Origin: Desulfuromonadales bacterium
Lineage (GTDB): Bacteria; Desulfobacterota; Desulfuromonadia; Desulfuromonadales; SZUA-540
DNA length: 64,000 nucleotides
Direction: 5' to 3'
NCBI GenBank assembly: GCA_033549025.1
Contig: JAWSUS010000005.1
Location: forward strand, 32,001 to 96,000
The translations under genes were made by a program, and so were the position numbers. Of this stretch, positions 23,193 through 35,045 are shown piece after piece. Numbering within the stretch: position 1 is the stretch's first letter; each line of letters begins with the position of its first letter. Under the pieces are notes generated by a model. The model worked only from the letters and a program-made list of their open reading frames with translations. It had not been told where the DNA came from and searched no databases.

Positions 23193-23930
23193 ATGCCCTA
23201 TTCGCTTGATCAGACCAAAAAGAATCTCTATCGCGAGCGTCCCTGGGTCTTCGTCTTCGGGGCGTTGCTCGCTTCGGTCGCCGGGTTTGTCAATGTGGTT
23301 CTGCTCGGGATCTATCATGTGCCGGTCAGTCACATGAGCGGCGCCGTCTCACGCCTGGCCATCGATATCACCACCACCAACCGGGGGGATCTGGTCGGCG
23401 CCTTCTCCATCTTTGCCGGGTTTCTGGCCGGCGCGGTATTGAGCGGTTTGATCATTGGCTCCACGCAAGTCCGCCCTGGTCGACGCTACGGCATCACCAT
23501 GATGATAGAGGGGGCTATTATTGGCGCCGCCACCTTTCTGCTCATGGCCCAGCTGTCTATCGGCATCCCCCTGGCGGCCATGGCCTGCGGTCTGCAAAAC
23601 GCCATGGCCAGCAGCTATTATGGGCTGATCATCCGCACCACCCATGTGTCTGGCATGGTGACGGATATCGGAGTCCTGATCGGACAGGGACTGCGTTACC
23701 GGCACCTCGAGTGGTGGAAGCTTTTTCTGCTGACGACTCTGTTGGGAGGTTTTTTCAGCGGTGGCCTCATCGGCGGCCTCGCGTACGCCTGGGTCGGTAT
23801 CCCGGCGCTTTTGCTTGCCGCCGCCGGCTGCGCGAGTGCCGGTCTCGGCTATTTTCTCTGGAGGCGACGTCACCTGGCTGATTTCCAGTTCGACGGTCCG
23901 GATTTTACTTCACCGAAAGAGATGGTATGA
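23193..23930 (+). CDS. YoaK / DUF1275 family membrane protein
   Basis: AGFVN, VSHMSG, GLQNA, RTTHVSG motifs. Confidence 0.85.
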   Translation: MPYSLDQTKKNLYRERPWVFVFGALLASVAGFVNVVLLGIYHVPVSHMSGAVSRLAIDITTTNRGDLVGAFSIFAGFLAGAVLSGLIIGSTQVRPGRRYGITMMIEGAIIGAATFLLMAQLSIGIPLAAMACGLQNAMASSYYGLIIRTTHVSGMVTDIGVLIGQGLRYRHLEWWKLFLLTTLLGGFFSGGLIGGLAYAWVGIPALLLAAAGCASAGLGYFLWRRRHLADFQFDGPDFTSPKEMV

Positions 23931-25924
23931 ACCTGCTACTTTTGGCGCTCCTGATTTTTGTCGCCACGGGCTTCCTCGCTCTGTGCGGTTCCCGCTGGCC
24001 GCGGCTGGCCGCCGTGCTCGGTGCGGCCGGTATGGTGGCGGGCGCTTTAGCGGGACTGCTGGTGGCTCTGTCGGGTCTGCGTGCCAATGAGCCTCAGTCC
24101 TGGACGCTGGCCTGGGGGGTGCCGGGTGGTCACCTGTCCCTCTACCTGGATCCCCTCGCTGCTTTTTTTCTGTTGCCCATGTGCCTGCTGGCTCTGCTCT
24201 GCGCCCTGTACGCACCGGGATATCTGCAGGGACACGCCCACCCGGCTGCTCTGGGTCCGCACTGGTTTTTCCTGAATATGATGGTTGCGGCCATGATTCT
24301 GGTCGTCGTTGCCGCCAATGCGGTGCTCTTCCTCATGGCCTGGGAGGTCATGACGCTGACTTCCTTCTTTCTGGTGGCCTTTGAGCATCGTCAGGCCGAG
24401 GTGAGAGAGGCCGCCTGGCTTTATCTGGTCGTTGCCCATCTGGGACTGGTACTGTTGCTGGCCTTTTTTGTGGGAGCCGGCACCCTTTGCGGCAGTTTCG
24501 ATTTCGCCGCCTTTGGCTGCCTGTCTCAGTTGTCGTCGTTGACCACCGGTCTGCTTTTTGTCGCCGCCCTGGCCGGTTTCGGCGTCAAAGCCGGTCTTTT
24601 CCCCCTGCATGTCTGGCTGCCCGATGCCCATCCCGCCGCTCCCAGCCATGTGTCGGCCCTGATGTCGGGGGTGCTGGTCAAAATCGGAATATACGGCATT
24701 TTGCGGGTCGGCAGCTTTCTGCCGGCAGCGTTGCCGTTGGCCGGCGTTCTGCTCATGGCCCTGGGTGGCGCCGGCGCTCTCTATGGCATTGTCATGGCCA
24801 ATTTTCAGCGGGATATCAAACGGTGTCTGGCCTACTCGACCATTGAGAATGTGGGGATCATCTTTCTCGGCCTGGGCCTGGGCTTTTTCGCGCAGGCCAA
24901 CGGGCATCCCACGCTGGCCCTCTTCGGGTTTGCCGGCGGCCTGCTGCACATCTGGAATCATGCCCTCTTCAAGGGGCTGCTCTTTCTGGGCGCCGGAAGC
25001 GTTCTGCATGCCACGGGAACGCGGGATATGGATCAGCTCGGCGGCTTGCTCAAGCGCATGCCCTGGACGGGCGGCCTCTTGCTCGGCGGCTGTCTGGCCA
25101 TCGCCGCCCTGCCGCCCTTCAACGGCCTGGTGAGTGAATGGCTCATCTACCTGGGGCTGCTGCAGGAGGGCGTGCTGGATGCCGGTTTCAGCGGCCTGCT
25201 CTCCCTGCTGCTGGTCGGTCTGCTCGGCCTGGTCGGCGCCCTGGCCGTGCTGGCCTTTACCCGTCTGGCCGGGATTGTTCTGCTGGGCAGCCCCCGCAGT
25301 CTGCCCGCCGAGCAGGCACGGGAGTCTTCCCTGTCCCTGCTCGGCCCTATGGGAGCGCTGCTGGCCGGCTGTCTGTTTGTCGGCGTGTTCCCTCAGGGCG
25401 CCTTGTCTCTGTTGGCCTTGCCCCTTGAGCAGCTCGTTCCCGGCGGTCAGGCGGCCCTGGCCCCGGTGCTGTTGCGCGTGGGGAAACTGGGTCAGTTCCA
25501 CGGTCTCATCGGGCTCAGCCTTCTGGTTATCGCCGCCCTCCTTCTCTGGCTCCGTCATCACCGGCCTGTCGCTCGTCGCGGGACCTGGAGCTGTGGCTTT
25601 GCCTTTTCCTCTTCCCGCGGCGAGTATACGGGTGAGGGCTATGCCGAGCTGACCCAGAGCCACCTGGTTCCGCACCTTCTCGCTCCGCAGGTAAATCGCC
25701 CGCTGTTGCGAGGGGTTTTTCCAGGGCGCATAGGCCTAAGCCAGCAGTCCCTCGACCCGGTACTGACCCGTCTGTTCCTGCCCGGCATCGCCAGGGTGAC
25801 CCACTGGTGCGTGCGTCTTCGCTGGCTGCAGCAGGGGCGACTGCATGTCTATCTGCTCTATATTTTCATGGCCTGTACCCTGTTGCTGGCCTGGGGTGTC
25901 TGGGCCGGGAGGGGGGTGCCATGA
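23927..25924 (+). CDS. ehrA: Ehr complex antiporter-like subunit (HyfB/NuoL-like), copy 1
   Basis: AWEVM, KAGLFPLHVWLPDAHPAAPSHVSALMSG, LAYSTIEN, NHALFK. Confidence 0.85.
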   Translation: MNLLLLALLIFVATGFLALCGSRWPRLAAVLGAAGMVAGALAGLLVALSGLRANEPQSWTLAWGVPGGHLSLYLDPLAAFFLLPMCLLALLCALYAPGYLQGHAHPAALGPHWFFLNMMVAAMILVVVAANAVLFLMAWEVMTLTSFFLVAFEHRQAEVREAAWLYLVVAHLGLVLLLAFFVGAGTLCGSFDFAAFGCLSQLSSLTTGLLFVAALAGFGVKAGLFPLHVWLPDAHPAAPSHVSALMSGVLVKIGIYGILRVGSFLPAALPLAGVLLMALGGAGALYGIVMANFQRDIKRCLAYSTIENVGIIFLGLGLGFFAQANGHPTLALFGFAGGLLHIWNHALFKGLLFLGAGSVLHATGTRDMDQLGGLLKRMPWTGGLLLGGCLAIAALPPFNGLVSEWLIYLGLLQEGVLDAGFSGLLSLLLVGLLGLVGALAVLAFTRLAGIVLLGSPRSLPAEQARESSLSLLGPMGALLAGCLFVGVFPQGALSLLALPLEQLVPGGQAALAPVLLRVGKLGQFHGLIGLSLLVIAALLLWLRHHRPVARRGTWSCGFAFSSSRGEYTGEGYAELTQSHLVPHLLAPQVNRPLLRGVFPGRIGLSQQSLDPVLTRLFLPGIARVTHWCVRLRWLQQGRLHVYLLYIFMACTLLLAWGVWAGRGVP

Positions 25925-27900
25925 CCATGGGATTATTCCTGACCGGGATCCTGCTGCTGCTCTTTTCCGGGTTTCCCGGCCTGATGGCCCGGCGCCAGGC
26001 CCTTTGGGGAGAGCGCTTGAGCTGCCTGCTGACCCTGCTGGGAACGACCTGCGGTCTGGCCGCCGCAATCATGGCCCTGCTGGCGCCGACCACGAATCGC
26101 CTGCGGCTGCCCTGGGGGGTGCCCGGCGCCGAATTCGTGCTGCAGCTCGATGCCCTTTCCGCCCTGTTTCTCCTGCCGCTCTTTCTGGTGGTCAGTGCCG
26201 GCGCGGTCTATGGGCTCGGCTACTGGCCTCAGCGACGGCATGGGGCCAGCGCCAAAAAATTACGCATTTTCTATGGCCTGATCGCCGGCGCTCTCATGCT
26301 GGTGCTGACGGCGCAAAACGGCTTGCTGTTCCTCTTCGCCTGGGAAGCCATGGCCCTGGCCGGTTTCTTTTTAATTACCACCGAAGATGACAAAGAGGAC
26401 AGCCGGCGGGCCGGTCTGATCTATCTGGCGGCGACCCACACGGGCACCCTGGCCCTCTTTGCCCTCTTCGCCCTGCTGGCGTCCGTGGTGGGCTCCTTCG
26501 CCTTTCCCGCGGCGGCCTCCATCGCCTCTGCCGGTACCGGCACGGCCATCTTTCTGCTCGGTCTCTTAGGCTTCGGCCTGAAGGCCGGCATCATGCCTCT
26601 GCATATCTGGCTGCCGGGCGCTCATGCCGCCGCCCCCAGCCATGCCTCGGCGCTGCTCTCGGGGGTCATGATCAAGACCGGCATTTACGGCCTGGTGCGC
26701 CTGACCTCCTTTTACGCCGACATTCCCCTGAGCTGGGGGGTGGGTCTGCTGGTGCTCGGTGCGCTATCCGGCGTGCTGGGGGTGGCTTTGGCCCTGGCCC
26801 AGCATGACATCAAGCGCCTGCTCGCCTATCACAGCGTCGAGAATATCGGCATCATCGTTATCGGTCTGGCCATCGCCCTGCTTGGCCGCACGTTTGAACA
26901 GCCGGCCATGATCCTGCTGGGGATTTCGGGGGCGCTGCTGCACACGGTCAATCACGGCCTCTTCAAGTCCCTGCTGTTTCTGGCGGCGGGGGCGGTCATC
27001 CACTCCACGGGAACCCGCGAGATGGATCACATGGGGGGGCTGTTCCGGCGTCTGCCCTGGACGGCCGCCTGTTTTCTCGGCGGTGCCGTCGCCATCTGCG
27101 GGCTGCCTCCTCTCAACGGTTTTGTCAGTGAGTGGCTGATTTACCTGGGCGCTTTCGATTCGCTAAAGGGGTCGGGAGCCGTTGGTCCATGGGCCGTATT
27201 GGCCGCCCCGGTTCTGGCTCTCATCGGCGCGCTGGCGGTGGCCTGCTTTGTCAAGGTCTTCGGCGTGGTCTTTTTAGGAGAAGCCCGGTGCCCCGCGGCG
27301 GCCACGGCCAAGCCGGCGGTCTGGTCCATGCGTTTGCCCATGCTCGCTCTGCTGACGGCCTGCGCCTGGATCGGCCTGCTCCCCTGGACCCTCGCCCCCC
27401 TGCTGCAGCGGGCCGCGGCGGTCTGGTCGGCGCAGGTCGCAGGACTGGAGCTGGAGGCGCCGCTGGCGCCGCTCTCCCGCCTCAGCCTGGTGGCTGTATT
27501 GTTGCTGCTGACGCTGGCCGGTTTGTGGCTCTGGCTGCAACGACGCGACCATGCCGGGGCCCCGCGGGTGGCTACCTGGGGATGCGGTTATCAATTCCCG
27601 GCCCCTCGCATGCAGTACAGCGCTTCTTCTTTTGCCGACCTGCTGGTTGGACTCTTCCGGGGTGGGCTGTGGACAAGTCGCCATGAACAGCCACCCAAGG
27701 GCCTTTTTCCGGCAAAAACGGGCTTTTCCAGCCACACGCCCGACGCTGTGCTCGACCGTTTCCTGTTGCCGCTCAGTCAGGGATTGGCCTGGCTTTTCAC
27801 CTTGCTGCGGCGTTTTCTGCAGAACGGCAGACCCGCTTTTTATCTGCTCTATATCGCTTTGACCCTGCTGACCCTGCTTATGGTAATCGCCTGCGGTTGA
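25921..27900 (+). CDS. ehrA: Ehr complex antiporter-like subunit (HyfB/NuoL-like), copy 2
   Basis: Paralog of the previous gene: KAGIMPLHIWLPGAHAAAPSHASALLSG, LAYHSVEN; ATGA overlap at 25921. Confidence 0.85.
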   Translation: MTMGLFLTGILLLLFSGFPGLMARRQALWGERLSCLLTLLGTTCGLAAAIMALLAPTTNRLRLPWGVPGAEFVLQLDALSALFLLPLFLVVSAGAVYGLGYWPQRRHGASAKKLRIFYGLIAGALMLVLTAQNGLLFLFAWEAMALAGFFLITTEDDKEDSRRAGLIYLAATHTGTLALFALFALLASVVGSFAFPAAASIASAGTGTAIFLLGLLGFGLKAGIMPLHIWLPGAHAAAPSHASALLSGVMIKTGIYGLVRLTSFYADIPLSWGVGLLVLGALSGVLGVALALAQHDIKRLLAYHSVENIGIIVIGLAIALLGRTFEQPAMILLGISGALLHTVNHGLFKSLLFLAAGAVIHSTGTREMDHMGGLFRRLPWTAACFLGGAVAICGLPPLNGFVSEWLIYLGAFDSLKGSGAVGPWAVLAAPVLALIGALAVACFVKVFGVVFLGEARCPAAATAKPAVWSMRLPMLALLTACAWIGLLPWTLAPLLQRAAAVWSAQVAGLELEAPLAPLSRLSLVAVLLLLTLAGLWLWLQRRDHAGAPRVATWGCGYQFPAPRMQYSASSFADLLVGLFRGGLWTSRHEQPPKGLFPAKTGFSSHTPDAVLDRFLLPLSQGLAWLFTLLRRFLQNGRPAFYLLYIALTLLTLLMVIACG

Positions 27901-27910
27901 GGAGGCTTCG

Positions 27911-28822
27911 ATGTTTGTCAATGTTCTGGTCCACCTGGTGCTTCTGTTGTTGTTTGCGCCTCTGCTGCAGGGGGTGATCACCCGCACCAAGGCCCTGTTC
28001 GCCGGCCGGCAGGGCGCACCCCTGCTGCAGCCTTACTATGACCTGGCCCGCCTGTGGCGCAAAGGGTTCGTCCTCAGCCACACGACGACCTGGGTCTTTC
28101 TGGCCGGGCCGGTGGTCGGGCTGGCCGTGCCGATACTGGCCGCACTCCTGCTGCCTTTCGGCGCCTTGCCGGCGCCCATCTCTTTTCAGGGGGACTTGAT
28201 CCTCTTTGTCTATCTCTTCGGGCTATCCCGTTTTTTCGTGGCCTCCGCCGCCCTGGATACGGGTTCGAGTTTTGAGGGGATGGGGGCAGCCCGCGAGGTG
28301 ACCTTCTCCTGTCTGGCCGAGCCGACCCTGCTCTTTTCCCTCATCGTCCTGGCCCGCCTGGCCGACGGCCTTTCCCTGGGAACCCTGCTCGGCGCCGGCC
28401 TCGGCTCCTCCTGGAGAGGGGGGGCGGCCTCGCTGGGGCTGATCACTGTCTGCCTCTTTGTCGTGCTGCTGGTGGAAAATTCCCGCATTCCCTTCGACGA
28501 TCCCAATACTCACCTTGAGCTGACGATGATCCACGAGGTCATGGTGCTTGATCACAGCGGCCCGGCCTTCGGCATGGTCCTGTACGGCGCCGCCCTCAAA
28601 CTGATGGTGCTGGGCTCTCTTGTCGTCCGTTTGGCTTTGCCCTTTGAGACGGGCAGCCCGCTGCTGGACGGGGGCGTCTACCTCGGCGGCCTGCTGCTGC
28701 TGGCCGTGCTGATCGGCGTGGTGGAATCGACCATGGCTCGCCTGCGCCTGGTGCGCGTCCCCCAGGTGCTCATCGGCACCATGCTGATTTCGATTTTTGC
28801 CCTGGTGCTGGTGCTGCGTTAG
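27911..28822 (+). CDS. ehrB: Ehr complex HyfC/NuoH-like membrane subunit
   Basis: GRQGAPLLQPYYDL, ENSRIPFDDPNTHLELTMIHE. Confidence 0.88.
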   Translation: MFVNVLVHLVLLLLFAPLLQGVITRTKALFAGRQGAPLLQPYYDLARLWRKGFVLSHTTTWVFLAGPVVGLAVPILAALLLPFGALPAPISFQGDLILFVYLFGLSRFFVASAALDTGSSFEGMGAAREVTFSCLAEPTLLFSLIVLARLADGLSLGTLLGAGLGSSWRGGAASLGLITVCLFVVLLVENSRIPFDDPNTHLELTMIHEVMVLDHSGPAFGMVLYGAALKLMVLGSLVVRLALPFETGSPLLDGGVYLGGLLLLAVLIGVVESTMARLRLVRVPQVLIGTMLISIFALVLVLR

Positions 28823-28834
28823 GAGTTACGACCC

Positions 28835-29473
28835 ATGATTGAATTGAGCAACCTCTGCCTGCTGCTGGTGATCCTCATCAACTTCTTCACTCTGGGCAGC
28901 GCCCGCCTGGTAGCCTGCATCCGGGTTGTGGCTCTGCAGGGCGCCCTCATCGCGCTGCTGCCGTGCCTGGCCCACGGAATTTCCTGGCATACCCTGATGC
29001 TGACGGCGACGGCCTTTCTCCTCAAGGGGGTATTCATCCCCTGGCTGCTGCTACGGGCCATCCGCGAGGTGCGCATCCGTCGCGAGGTCGAGGCGCTTAT
29101 CGGCTTCGTCCCCACCCTGATCATCGGCGCCATGCTCACGGCCGGGGCTTTTATCTTCGCGGATTTTCTGCCGCTGCTGCCGGAGCATCAGGGCGGACTC
29201 TACGTCCCCACCTCCCTGGCCACCCTCTTTGCCGGTTTCATGCTGCTGATGACGCGGCGCAAGGCCATCACCCAGGTGCTCGGCTATCTGATGCTGGAAA
29301 ACGGCATCTTTATTTTCAGCATCCTGCTCAGCGAGGCCATGCCCCTGGTGGTGGAAGCGGGGGTGCTGCTCGATCTGCTCGTCGCGGTTTTTGTCATGGG
29401 GATTGTGATCAACCAGATCAACCGGGAGTTTTCCACCGTGGATACCACCCGGCTTTCCGTCCTGAAGGAATAA
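28835..29473 (+). CDS. ehrC: Ehr complex HyfE-like membrane subunit
   Basis: RRKAITQVLGYLMLENGI, VEAGVLLD. Confidence 0.85.
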   Translation: MIELSNLCLLLVILINFFTLGSARLVACIRVVALQGALIALLPCLAHGISWHTLMLTATAFLLKGVFIPWLLLRAIREVRIRREVEALIGFVPTLIIGAMLTAGAFIFADFLPLLPEHQGGLYVPTSLATLFAGFMLLMTRRKAITQVLGYLMLENGIFIFSILLSEAMPLVVEAGVLLDLLVAVFVMGIVINQINREFSTVDTTRLSVLKE

Positions 29474-29477
29474 CACG

Positions 29478-30902
29478 ATGCTGATGTTGCTGATTTGTTT
29501 CCCCTTGGCCCTGGCCGCCCTGGCGGTGGCGCTGCCCTCCTTCCGGGTGCGGAGCTGGCTGCTGCCGGTCAGCGGTGTCCTGCACTTCGCGCTGGCCGTC
29601 GCCGTGGTCAGTCAAGGGAGCCCCGCCGCAACGCCCTGGCTTGGCCTCGATGCCCTCTCCCAGCTGGTCCTGCTGGCGACCAGTCTGCTCTACCTGGCCT
29701 GTTCCATCTATGCCGTTGCCTATCTCAACCTGCATTCGGAGCGGGGGAACCGCCTGATGGTCGCCTGCCTGCTGATCTTTCTGACGGCCATGACGCTGGC
29801 CATTACGGCGCGTCATCTGGGGCTGCTGTGGGTGGCGGTGGAGACGACGACCATCGCCAGCGCTCCGCTGATCTACTACAATCGTAACCGCCTCTCCATC
29901 GAAGCGACCTGGAAATATCTCATTCTCTGCTCGGTGGGTATCGCTCTGGCCATGGTCGGCATCCTCTTTGTGGCCTATGCGGCCCTCGGCAACGGTGTGC
30001 CGGTCAGCCTGCAGCTCGATGCGCTGCTGGCGGCGGGGCCGACCCTGGCCCGCCCCTGGCTGCATGCCGGTTTCGTCTTTCTGCTGGTCGGCTTCGGCAC
30101 CAAGATGGGGCTGGCGCCGCTGCACAGCTGGAAGCCCGATGCCTACGGCGAGGCGCCGGGTCTGGTCGGCGCTCTGCTGGCCGGCGGTCTGACTTCCGTG
30201 GCCTTTCTCGCCATCCTGCGCGGGGTGCAGCTGATGGGCGCGGCCGGCGATCTGGCCCTGGCCCGACAGATGCTGCTCGGCATGGGCCTGCTTTCGCTGC
30301 TGCTGGCAGCCATCTTCATGGTCCGGCAGGGCGACATCAAACGTCTGCTCGCCTATTCGAGCGTTGAACACATGGGGCTGCTGGCCGTGGGGGTCGGTAT
30401 CGGTGGTCTGGCCACCTTCGGCGCCCTGCTGCATCTGCTCAACAACGCCATGACCAAGGGCTGCCTCTTCCTCTGTGCTGGCAATATCCACCGGGCTTTT
30501 GCCAGCAAGCGCCTGCAGGATGTGCGGGGTGCGCTGTCGGTCTTGCCCGTCTCCAGCGCCCTTTTTCTGGCCGGCTTCCTGGCCATCACCGGCTCACCCC
30601 CCTTCGGCCCTTTCCTCAGCGAGTTCACCATGCTGCGCGGCATGTTCGCCGCTGGCCAGATGTGGGTGGGCGCTGTGGTACTGGTCTTGCTGGCCGTCAT
30701 CTTTATCGGCATGGGGGCTACAGTGCTGGCCGTGACCCAGGGGGAGGCGGAGGTGGAGCAGGTGCATTTCCGGGATCGGCTGCCGTTGGTGGCGCCGCCC
30801 CTCTTTCTGCTGCTGGTCGTGCTGGTGCTGGGGCTCTATCTGCCCGAACCACTGCAGCGCCTGCTGCGGGATGCCGCCGCTCTGCTGGAGGTGAACGCAT
30901 GA
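29478..30902 (+). CDS. ehrD: Ehr complex HyfF-like antiporter subunit
   Basis: EATWKY, GTKMGLAPLHSWKPDAYGEAP, KRLLAYSSVEHMG. Confidence 0.88.
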   Translation: MLMLLICFPLALAALAVALPSFRVRSWLLPVSGVLHFALAVAVVSQGSPAATPWLGLDALSQLVLLATSLLYLACSIYAVAYLNLHSERGNRLMVACLLIFLTAMTLAITARHLGLLWVAVETTTIASAPLIYYNRNRLSIEATWKYLILCSVGIALAMVGILFVAYAALGNGVPVSLQLDALLAAGPTLARPWLHAGFVFLLVGFGTKMGLAPLHSWKPDAYGEAPGLVGALLAGGLTSVAFLAILRGVQLMGAAGDLALARQMLLGMGLLSLLLAAIFMVRQGDIKRLLAYSSVEHMGLLAVGVGIGGLATFGALLHLLNNAMTKGCLFLCAGNIHRAFASKRLQDVRGALSVLPVSSALFLAGFLAITGSPPFGPFLSEFTMLRGMFAAGQMWVGAVVLVLLAVIFIGMGATVLAVTQGEAEVEQVHFRDRLPLVAPPLFLLLVVLVLGLYLPEPLQRLLRDAAALLEVNA

Positions 30903-32410
30903 TGCCCATCGTGAAAAATGGCGGGACCGTGCCGCTTGATGAGATCCCCGTCCTCGACTATGAGGTTTTCGGCCCCCGGTTGAAGGCCGATATGGAACAG
31001 GAGGGGAGGGTGGCCGCCTACTTCGGGCACCTGGCGGCGGAGGGCGAGGTGGAACTCTTTGCCCTGATCGCTCACGACTGGAAGGGGGAGCTGCATTTGC
31101 TGCGGTCACGGGTCGGCAGTCGTTTCCCTTCCCTGACCCCGGAAATTCCCCAGCTGCACCTCTTCGAGCGCGAGCTCGCCGAACAGTTCGGCGTGGTGCC
31201 CGAAGGCCATCCCTGGCTCAAGCCGGTGCGCTTCCATTCATCCTGGGTGCCTGAACGGGATGCCTGGGGCCGGTCGGCTGGGGGGCATCCGGTGCCGGGG
31301 GATATGGAATTCTACCGGGTTGAAGGGGAGGAAGTGCATGAAGTCGCCGTCGGGCCGGTGCATGCCGGGGTGATTGAGCCGGGGCATTTCCGCTTTCAGT
31401 GTCATGGCGAAAAGGTCATGCACCTGGAGATCTCCCTCGGCTTTCAGCATCGGGGACTCGAAGCCCTGCTGCACGGCGGCCCTCACGCCAGCACCCTGCA
31501 CCAGTTGGAGGCGGCGGCCGGAGACACGACCATCGGCCACGCCACCGCGTACTGCCAGGTGCTGGAGGCCTTAAGCGGCTGTGCGGTGCCGCCGAAAGGG
31601 CAGGTGCTGCGGGCGGTGGCGCTGGAGTTGGAGCGTCTGGCCAACCATGTCGGCGACATCGGCGCGCTCGCCGGGGATGTGGGCTTTCTGCCGACGGCCA
31701 GCTTCTGCGGCCGCATTCGCGGCGACTATCTCAACCTGAGCGCCGAACTGTGCGGCAGCCGTTTCGGGCGCGGGATGATTCGTCCCGGCGGGGTTGGTTT
31801 CGACGCCGACCCGGTGCTGGTCGCCCATCTTCTGCAGCGCCTGGCGGTGATCGAGCGCGATACGCGCGGGGCGATCGAACTCTTCTTCGACAGCCCCTCG
31901 GCCCTGGCCCGACTGGAGGGGACGGGGAAGGTCGCCACCGAGGACGCCGAATCCCTCGGTCTGGTCGGCATGGCGGCCAGGGCCTGTGGGTTGGCGGTCG
32001 ACTCCCGCATTCATCATCCGGCCGGGGCCTATGTCGACGACTTTGATCACGTCGTCCTGGAAGAGGGTGGGGATGTTTTCGCCCGGGCCCATGTGCGCCG
32101 ACGGGAGATCTACGATTCCATCAAACAGATCCGTTACTGGCTCAGCCGGCTGCCGGCCGGTGTGGCCCGAGCCGACGTGCCCCCGCTGGCGCCAGACAGT
32201 CTGGCCCTGTCGCTGACGGAGGGGTGGCGCGGCGAAATCGTGCATGTGGCCCTGACCGATGCCGCCGGCCGGTTTTCGCGCTACAAGGTCGTGGATTCCT
32301 CCTTCCGCAACTGGAACGGCCTGGCCATGGCCCTGCGCGAGGAGCAGATATCCGACTTTCCCTTGTGCAACAAGAGTTTCAATCTTTCCTACTGCGGCTT
32401 CGATCTGTAG
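30899..32410 (+). CDS. ehrL: Ehr large subunit (HyfG/NuoCD-like) lacking NiFe CxxC ligands
   Basis: VGPVHAGVIEPGHFRF, ELERLANH; AAGDTTIGH in place of RxCGxCxxxH and DFPLCNKSFNLSYCGFDL in place of DPCxxC. Confidence 0.88.
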   Translation: MMPIVKNGGTVPLDEIPVLDYEVFGPRLKADMEQEGRVAAYFGHLAAEGEVELFALIAHDWKGELHLLRSRVGSRFPSLTPEIPQLHLFERELAEQFGVVPEGHPWLKPVRFHSSWVPERDAWGRSAGGHPVPGDMEFYRVEGEEVHEVAVGPVHAGVIEPGHFRFQCHGEKVMHLEISLGFQHRGLEALLHGGPHASTLHQLEAAAGDTTIGHATAYCQVLEALSGCAVPPKGQVLRAVALELERLANHVGDIGALAGDVGFLPTASFCGRIRGDYLNLSAELCGSRFGRGMIRPGGVGFDADPVLVAHLLQRLAVIERDTRGAIELFFDSPSALARLEGTGKVATEDAESLGLVGMAARACGLAVDSRIHHPAGAYVDDFDHVVLEEGGDVFARAHVRRREIYDSIKQIRYWLSRLPAGVARADVPPLAPDSLALSLTEGWRGEIVHVALTDAAGRFSRYKVVDSSFRNWNGLAMALREEQISDFPLCNKSFNLSYCGFDL

Positions 32411-32430
32411 GCGGGGATGGAGAACGAGCT

Positions 32431-33183
32431 ATGCTGAAGATTATTGCTGAACGCTTTCGTCAGGGCTATCGGACCGGCAAGTACCCCAAGGAAGAGCCGG
32501 TGCTGCCGGAACGTTTTCGTGGGCTGCCCCGTCTGCAGCCGGGGCGCTGCCCCTCCGGCTGTGACGACTGTCTGCGCGGCTGCCCCTACGGCGCCGTGCA
32601 GCGGCAGGAGGGCAAAGTGGCGGTCGATATGGGGCTCTGCCTCTTCTGCGCCGACTGTACGGCCTGTACGCACGGCGCCCTCTCCTTCAGTGGCGATTAT
32701 CGGCTGGCGTCCCGCCGCCGCGACGGACTGGTGGTCGATGCGGACATTTACCCGCTGGCGGAAGCGCTTGACGCCCGCATGAAAAAACTGTTCGGGCGCT
32801 CCCTGAAGCTGCGCCAGGTCTCCGCCGGCGGCTGCAACGCCTGCGAAGCCGACCTCAACGTGCTCGGCACTCTGGTCTTTGACCTGGGCCGTTTCGGCAT
32901 CCAGTTCGTCGCCTCGCCGCGCCATGCCGACGGTATTCTGGTCACCGGGCCGGTCACTGAAAACATGAAGAGCGCCCTGCTCGACACCTACGCCGCCGTA
33001 CCCGAGCCAAAGCTGGTCATCGCCTCCGGCGCCTGCGCCATCGGCGGCGGCCCCTTCCGTGGCAGCCCCGAGTGTCACAACGGCCTCGGTGACCTGCTCC
33101 CCGTCGACCTCTATATCCCCGGCTGTCCGCCGCACCCCTACACGGCGCTGGATGGTCTGCTGCGTCTGCTCGGCCGCCTGTAA
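32431..33183 (+). CDS. ehrS: Ehr small subunit (ferredoxin-like N-terminus + NuoB/HyfI domain)
   Basis: CPSGCDDCLRGCP and CLFCADC, then GGCNACE, GACAIGGG, PGCPP. Confidence 0.88.
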   Translation: MLKIIAERFRQGYRTGKYPKEEPVLPERFRGLPRLQPGRCPSGCDDCLRGCPYGAVQRQEGKVAVDMGLCLFCADCTACTHGALSFSGDYRLASRRRDGLVVDADIYPLAEALDARMKKLFGRSLKLRQVSAGGCNACEADLNVLGTLVFDLGRFGIQFVASPRHADGILVTGPVTENMKSALLDTYAAVPEPKLVIASGACAIGGGPFRGSPECHNGLGDLLPVDLYIPGCPPHPYTALDGLLRLLGRL

Positions 33184-33202
33184 AAGGCGGCCGCTGCCGT
33201 CG

Positions 33203-33454
33203 TCAGAATTCGAGCTCTTCCTGCATGCGCAGGGTGAAGTTCTTGGCCCGCCCTGAGGGCGCGATGATGCCGTAGGCCATGGCCTCCTTGAGTTCCGCCT
33301 CGCTGGCTCCTGCTTCCTTCGCGACCGCGAAGTGCTTTTTCAGTCAGTCGGGGCAGCCGACGGCCACGGCGCAGGCCACCCGGATCAGTTCGCGGTGCTT
33401 GACGTCGATGACTTCTTCGTACTCGTAATCCAGAATTTTTTTACGGACTTTCAT
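33203..33454 (-). CDS. AhpD/CMD-like selenoprotein (CxxU), 83 aa with in-frame TGA
   Basis: MKVRKKILDYEYEEVIDVKHRELIRVACAVAVGCPD-U-LKKHFAVAKEAGASEAELKEAMAYGIIAPSGRAKNFTLRMQEELEF; TGA at 33344-33346; AGGAGG RBS; CMD-like pattern continues across the TGA. Confidence 0.85.
33317..33332 (-). promoter_or_regulatory. bacterial SECIS element
   Basis: CUUCGC-GGUC-GCGAAG hairpin starting 11 nt after the UGA, with GU in the apical loop. Confidence 0.75.
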
Positions 33455-33701
33455 CGTTCCTCCTCGCAAGCTGTTGGTTGCCCCATAGCCCGCGCCGGAC
33501 ACGGGCCAGTCAGGGGAAGGGCGGTGTAGGTTTCTGGCTACTCCCTCGTTTTTCCGCTAATTTCTTGACAGTTTCAAGGGGGCGTTGTAATTAAATCGGG
33601 TTTTCACGGACAGATGCAAGCTTTTTTGTCTGTCCAGACCGCCTTTAACCGCGATGTCCGCCGGCAATGACCTGCGGGGGAGATTTTCGCAAGGAGTGGG
33701 G

Positions 33702-34823: not shown

Positions 34824-35045
34824 ATGTCCAATCCCGCTGAATTCGTCAAGGCTTGTGTCGACGGCAAGGTCTGGCTCTTTTGCCCCGAGTGCCAAGAATC
34901 CAAGAACTTCAACGATGTCGAACACATCGATTCGGAAGGGCATCCCTCCTACTGGGGGACGGAGCCCTGGTGGCACGACACCCGCATCTTCAAGTGTCGC
35001 GACTGCGAGACGGTACAGCGCTCGACGCTGCACCTGCAGGAGTAA
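34824..35045 (+). CDS. small CxxC..CxxC zinc-ribbon-like hypothetical protein
   Basis: 73 aa, CPEC..CRDC, GAGG RBS. Confidence 0.7.
   Translation: MSNPAEFVKACVDGKVWLFCPECQESKNFNDVEHIDSEGHPSYWGTEPWWHDTRIFKCRDCETVQRSTLHLQE

Follow-up and report, generated by a model that had tools for sequence, protein, structure and literature searches.

An 83-codon gene with an internal TGA that most likely specifies selenocysteine (Sec) within a redox motif lies on the minus strand of the 64,000-nucleotide stretch of Desulfuromonadales DNA analyzed here (hereafter, the window). The gene is real, it had been correctly interpreted from its letters, and its family is already known: the product matches the NCBIfam equivalog model NF041047 (GSU3128 family (seleno)protein) with 160.4 bits against a cut-off of 110, and does so over its full length (residues 1–82 on positions 1–83 of the 84-position profile). 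We consider it probable that this GSU3128 member, with UGA37 recoded through a bacterial SECIS element, is an AhpD-type protein whose likely role in the cytoplasm is to reduce peroxides (as a selenol/thiol peroxidase) or disulfides. The general label "oxidoreductase" is suggested by the motif, and SelB-dependent insertion of Sec at UGA37 is a step that we regard as close to certain. The features of the locus are the following.

33203..33454, minus strand: stand-alone gene for an 83-aa, CMD/AhpD-like member of the GSU3128 (seleno)protein family
33459..33464, minus strand: Shine-Dalgarno-like AGGAGG, 4 nt 5′ of the ATG, called from the sequence
33454, minus strand: start ATG, opening 36 codons that end in AVAVGCPD and run into the TGA
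33389..33391, minus strand: Glu22, predicted relay residue at the position of M. tuberculosis AhpD Glu118, present in 81/81 sequences
33371..33373, minus strand: Cys28, present in 81/81 family sequences and rare in distant CMD proteins
33353..33355, minus strand: Cys34, first residue of CxxU, at the position of AhpD Cys130, 81/81
33344..33346, minus strand: in-frame TGA, predicted Sec37, at the position of AhpD Cys133; TGA in the best 80 of 95 relatives
33317..33332, minus strand: bacterial SECIS hairpin with a 6-bp stem and a GGUC loop (33326–33323), overlapping codons 41–46
33203..33205, minus strand: terminal TGA, a true stop; the stops of relatives vary
33171..33193, no strand assigned: GC-rich 9-bp hairpin directly past the gene; it covers the end of the hydrogenase small-subunit-like gene that converges from the other side

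The ribosome-binding site, the ATG at 33454 and the 36 codons up to the TGA are all present as the sequence-only reading had described them. So is its read-through frame, which 3′ of TGA37 continues as LKKHFAVAKEAGASEAELKEAM... for 46 more codons to the stop at 33205–33203 and completes the 83 residues. GGAG-type sites also precede the start in the displayed relatives. The gene had been described as overlooked by the open reading frame track, and it is indeed absent from that list because neither half attains the 60 residues at which the list begins. It is divergent from aroC (33654 onward) and convergent with a hydrogenase-4-like operon ending at 33183, and is therefore likely transcribed alone. 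A promoter scan returned no sigma-70 promoter, and the GC-rich hairpin past the gene is a possible terminator, with no U-run and no call from the terminator scan. In three of four runs, RNA-library contigs with ≥90% identity span most of the gene; they are compatible with expression but are no proof of it, since contigs carry no information on transcription, its strand or its level. The convergent operon (23927–33183, plus strand) encodes a hydrogenase-4-like membrane complex whose subunits are two tandem HyfB-like ones, one of HyfF-like type, one that fuses the 30- and 49-kDa subunits, and one ferredoxin/20-kDa subunit.

Conservation of the internal TGA supports recoding. A genome scan for relatives yielded 95, of which the best 80 were retained, at 70–86% identity and mostly from Desulfuromonadales and Geobacteraceae. 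Codon 37 is TGA in all 80 of these loci and never TAA or TAG, and their terminal stops are TAG (30), TAA (26) or TGA (23), with one gene cut by a contig end. One internal TGA is likewise found in each of the 150 best class-search matches listed, beside which there are 200 weaker ones. The window gene itself has a single internal TGA, and hence one Sec, in the CxxU motif C34-P-D-U37. The sequence 3′ of TGA37 is conserved, both halves equally so and in one frame. Among 114 distant CMD-family matches, 109 have Cys at position 37, with no Trp among the residues listed for this position, and nearer natural Cys forms occur as well (P0019 with CSEC and P0123 with CPTC). Homologs with Cys or TGA at position 37, and conservation beyond the TGA, were what the selenoprotein reading had led one to expect, and both were found. 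A second Sec at the terminal TGA was also considered and rejected: this codon is a true stop because the stops of relatives vary and the hairpin that follows it has a UUUAC loop without G. In a close relative, one RNA-library contig shows TAA as the corresponding stop.

The hairpin CUUCGC-GGUC-GCGAAG, previously reported to begin 11 nt past the TGA, was recovered at 33332–33317, and its reading as a bacterial SECIS element agrees with all four published criteria for such elements. The consensus stated in PMC13188914 comprises a 3–9 nt loop with G in the first two loop positions, a 4–16 bp stem, a UGA-to-loop distance of 16–37 nt and a minimum free energy (MFE) of ≤ –7.5 kcal/mol. Here, a 4-nt GGUC loop that starts with GG closes a 6-bp stem 17 nt from the UGA, and the MFE is –8.7 kcal/mol for the 18-nt segment and –7.1 for the bare 16-mer. 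The 16-mer is identical across 69 of 81 sequences. The overlapped codons 41–46, which include His41 (the position of AhpD His137), have the six highest values for synonymous identity among the 61 codons scored (on average 0.95 vs 0.49; p = 3e-5, a value that ignores relatedness). Paired cells make up 98.7% of the hairpin alignment vs 35–65% for slid controls. Covariation is slight, with one compensatory cell and an equally high score in 21 of 500 shuffles, and the folding energy is no better than that of shuffles (z = 0.32). Across the genome, 55 of 104,589 TGA triplets have, at the same place, a fully paired 6-bp stem that closes a 4-nt loop; four of the 55 also have a GG/xGT loop, two of them being this gene and a TxxU peroxiredoxin. 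Position and conservation, not folding energy, put the hairpin beyond chance.

Several observations concern the hairpin and its variants. On the plus strand, a T-run comes after the SECIS complement (33317–33332), which is scored there as a terminator that would serve the convergent operon; it is the single terminator-like site and stands at chance level (1 found, 1.3 expected), and the T-run rests on Lys codons that are variable among relatives. A clade of seven loci (L076, L077, L078, L081, L082, L084, L088) keeps TGA37 with an altered SECIS, in which the loop is CCUG or CUUG and the stem is broken in three of the seven; selB is present in all five of the five tested. The Cys form P0019 groups with this clade (SH-aLRT 86, on a long branch) in a quick tree that is built on few columns, is mostly unresolved and leaves out one aberrant locus (L083). 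The clade possibly represents SECIS decay en route to replacement of Sec by Cys. Outside the class, a locus with CRH-TGA (L132, G402:C118:9579-9806) scores 73 bits, below the NF041047 cut-off, and has the same stem at the same spacing as the window gene with a GGGC loop; the SECIS therefore predates the GSU3128 family as modelled.

The machinery that Sec insertion calls for, selA, selB, selC (tRNA-Sec) and selD, was looked for in the genome of the window and found in full. Its selD itself has one TGA; the spacer to the hairpin behind it is the one seen in the window gene, and the loop differs. Together, the kept TGA, the geometry and constraint of the SECIS and the Sec genes support the selenoprotein reading. 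Across the class, the NF041047 cut-off is exceeded in 168 of 301 genomes; a phylum sample of 401 genomes gave 12 over-cut-off matches, all from the same class, and seven weaker TGA-bearing relatives outside it. With selA found in 276 of the 301 class genomes, the gene occurs in 166 of the 276 selA-positive and in 2 of the 25 selA-negative ones; these counts come from kin genomes, so they are not independent, and from a cross-tabulation by eye in which 5 of the 25 selA-negatives were recognized because the list did not include them.

Two draft genomes, G141 (96% complete) and G215 (99%), carry the gene with its TGA and a perfect SECIS (C33:32090-32335, L130, and C21:35871-36116, L129, respectively), and no selA, selB or tRNA-Sec was found in them, the tRNA search having scored 150 of 332–374 candidates. 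G141 also returned no selD; in G215, sequence inspection revealed a selD that contains no TGA and has yedF-like and rhodanese-domain genes next to it (C3:33000-46000, L134). Either Sec decoding was recently lost or the genes are unassembled, two cases that are indistinguishable because both genomes are drafts. The pair counts mildly against a strict co-occurrence of gene and Sec machinery.

That TGA37 might be a true stop, leaving a split gene or a pseudogene, or be read as Trp is exceedingly improbable. The forms in which the family reaches databases would seem to favor it, since 101 of 137 close (≥60% identity) database proteins end at residue 35–39, 16 consist of the C-terminal half alone and 17 have W at position 37, the rest being two other forms and one full-length Cys form; the two genomes without detectable Sec genes point the same way. 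Equal conservation of both halves is at odds with a stop, however, as is a codon that is never TAA or TAG in the best 80 of 95 relatives, and the synonymous constraint falls exactly on the SECIS. A Trp reading is opposed by the Cys of distant homologs, with Trp absent among the residues listed, and by the tRNA set, in which the only UCA anticodon belongs to tRNA-Sec. Trp read-through and a split gene were rejected on this evidence, and faulty gene calling best explains the truncated proteins and those with W.

The proposed AhpD/CMD assignment holds, with 48.5 bits against a cut-off of 23 for Pfam CMD (PF02627) and 35.8 against 27.8 for the AhpD core (TIGR00778). Full-length AhpD (TIGR00777) stays far from its cut-off (14.9 vs 191.95 bits). 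The decarboxylase PcaC shares PF02627 with the window protein and was rejected as its family (TIGR02425, 22.6 vs 155.7 bits); gamma-CMD enzymes are described in PMC3141380 as having no CxxC relay. Traits specific to the GSU3128 family are a short N-terminus, the invariant C28 (81 of 81 family sequences; Cys in 9 of 114 distant CMD matches), an invariant Y61 and a PxGxAKNF tail. The window gene has the CxxU motif, the single Sec and the bacterial class of the family, and nothing substantive differs; what is local is its neighborhood, between aroC and the hydrogenase-4-like operon.

The account of M. tuberculosis AhpD in PMC3141380 assigns its relay to E118, C130, H132, C133 and H137 and notes that the His132 position varies. 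In the window family, E22, C34, U37 and H41 are invariant in 81 of 81 sequences at the spacing of the AhpD relay, and residue 36, which corresponds to His132 of the CxHC motif, is D or T. AhpD, P. aeruginosa PA0269 and the window protein share a two-helix core with E-x11-C-x2-C/U-x3-H at identical spacing. The window protein differs from both in having Sec at the second position and D/T at the His132 position, in being under half their length and in having no linked ahpC. Characterized AhpD-like relatives, PA0269 included, are weak peroxidases according to the same source.

Sequence searches of the PDB retrieved 7Y4R (E 1.8e-9), 3BEY, 1VKE, 1P8C, 5DIK, 2AF7 and 2OUW. The small CMD structures 7Y4R, 3BEY, 1VKE/1P8C and Lpg0406 (5DIK) match over residues 12–79, including CxxC-x3-H, and the window protein departs from such solved proteins in its Sec for Cys, in the extra invariant C28 and in the 11 residues, predicted to form a β-hairpin, that precede the core (37 in 7Y4R). 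An AlphaFold2 model built from a 57-sequence alignment with U entered as C (pLDDT 94.6) has strands at 4–7 and 10–13 and helices at 18–32, 35–47, 52–64 and 71–80; the predicted fold is accordingly a short N-terminal β-hairpin and four helices, with the putative relay residues on the helix hairpin formed by 18–32 and 35–47. The related RclX, modelled as a hexamer in PMC7950407, is reported there to protect against HOCl/HOSCN. Each of the entries 7Y4R, 3BEY, 1VKE and 1P8C contains six chains. By analogy with its solved relatives, the window protein likely oligomerizes.

A catalytic cycle can be proposed by homology. SelB-GTP-Sec-tRNA would bind the GGUC loop of the mRNA, and Sec would be inserted. 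In M. tuberculosis AhpD, the second residue of CxxC is the attacking one. In the window protein, the E22-H41 relay would serve to activate Sec37 for its attack on a peroxide or disulfide; the resulting Sec37 intermediate would be resolved by C34 to a Se-S bond, and a cellular dithiol would re-reduce that bond.

Gene neighborhoods give no clue to the substrate or function. The commonest neighbors in the best 80 of 95 relatives are MATE (26), glnE (15), DUF116 (11), fmt (10) and def (9), and the neighbor clusters are lineage-specific housekeeping genes with no conserved partner gene among them; 69 of the 110 clusters with at least three loci were scanned in Pfam, many of them being spurious frames. 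One of 110 loci, from the same genus, has both neighbors of the window gene; one further locus shares just the hydrogenase gene.

The same selenoprotein could be a dedicated adaptor reductase for one partner instead of a general peroxidase. The partner would be either a peroxiredoxin, on the pattern of AhpC/AhpD, or an ArsM/MduS-type SAM methyltransferase; we judge this unlikely. M. tuberculosis AhpD is described as re-reducing AhpC (PMC3141380), and the genome holds seven AhpC/TSA-family matches (three with TGA) and five biotin/lipoyl-domain matches, none of them linked to the gene. The protein also matches the AhpD portion of selenoprotein methyltransferase fusions (NF041537, E 1.9e-9; NF045649, E 3.5e-8), and the same genome has an MduS gene, likewise unlinked; the fusion matches, however, are limited to the shared CMD core and lie far under the cut-offs. 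The family-specific invariants C28, Y61 and PxGxAKNF suggest a conserved interface, whereas the 69 commonest of the 110 neighbor clusters gave no Pfam match to a peroxiredoxin, lipoyl protein or methyltransferase. A more specific version, which we consider doubtful, would make the family a minimal partner-specific selenol reductase serving a process particular to Desulfuromonadia, with C28, the N-terminal β-hairpin and PxGxAKNF as a three-chalcogen site or docking surface. In the AlphaFold2 model the hairpin replaces the usual N-terminal segment of CMD proteins, and the PxGxAKNF tail is invariant. Such a reductase might, for example, re-reduce Sec-peroxiredoxins or ArsM/MduS-type methyltransferases in trans.

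A protein that is no turnover enzyme, and in which C28, C34, U37 and H41 form a cluster for metal or metalloid binding or for carrying Se or S, is very improbable. The distribution of C28, a Cys in 81 of 81 family members and in 9 of 114 distant CMD matches, would fit such a role, and related domains fused to arsenite methyltransferase exist. The E22-C34-U37-H41 spacing, however, is exactly that of the AhpD relay as given in PMC3141380; C28 lies within the modelled helix 18–32, where it may be structural; and no metal-handling gene is among the common neighbors (69 of 110 clusters scanned).

The genome contains further genes of related types. MduS, a second AhpD-domain selenoprotein (L125, G000:C42:802), scores 474 bits vs 380 on NF045649 and is located at a contig start; it contains CDPU, and a hairpin whose loop is GCAG lies past its TGA. 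An AhpD-like 182-aa open reading frame (L128, G000:C66:410) has CAFU and a hairpin past the TGA; its best match is the YciW-related (seleno)protein model NF053654, at 102.8 bits well under the cut-off of 310, and it therefore possibly belongs to an unmodelled subfamily. In-frame TGA codons are also present in AhpC/TSA-family genes at G000:C2:259867 (FTFVU), C2:19390 (GGWU) and C5:14400 (FTPVU), the first of which has the 11-nt spacer, 6-bp stem and tetraloop geometry of the window gene.

The suspicion that similar small selenoproteins were already catalogued in Geobacter relatives proved right, the family being NF041047. A predicted G. sulfurreducens selenoprotein with carboxymuconolactone decarboxylase as top match was reported in 2005 (PMC1242214), a distant AhpD homolog was tabulated for G. 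sulfurreducens and G. uraniumreducens in 2006 (PMC1794560), and two such genes were counted in Olavius symbionts (PMC1976440). Table 1 of a 2026 review enters NF041047 as a "distant AhpD homolog" with CxxU, "predicted with high confidence", that is, as predicted and not verified (PMC13188914). The available text of PMC1914089 and PMC13510729 holds nothing on the GSU3128 family, and our search of the open-access literature found no experimental study of it. Being catalogued and common in Geobacter-type bacteria, the gene is therefore ordinary; with a curated model and a place in selenoproteome tables since at least 2006, it carries little weight as a discovery. Standard gene callers still break the family, 101 of the 137 close database proteins being cut at the TGA. 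With its wide distribution (168 of 301 class genomes), very small size and near-invariant SECIS, it offers a convenient system in which to study Sec chemistry within the AhpD fold.

Two minor observations concern other sequences. In the Geotalea toluenoxydans locus (L083), CRT-TGA takes the place of CPx-TGA and a frameshift follows AKNFA, probably through sequencing error or decay. Past aroC in the window, a 73-aa open reading frame (34824–35045, plus strand) gave no NCBIfam match and no significant Pfam match; it contains CxxC twice (CPEC and CRDC) and possibly encodes a small zinc-ribbon protein.
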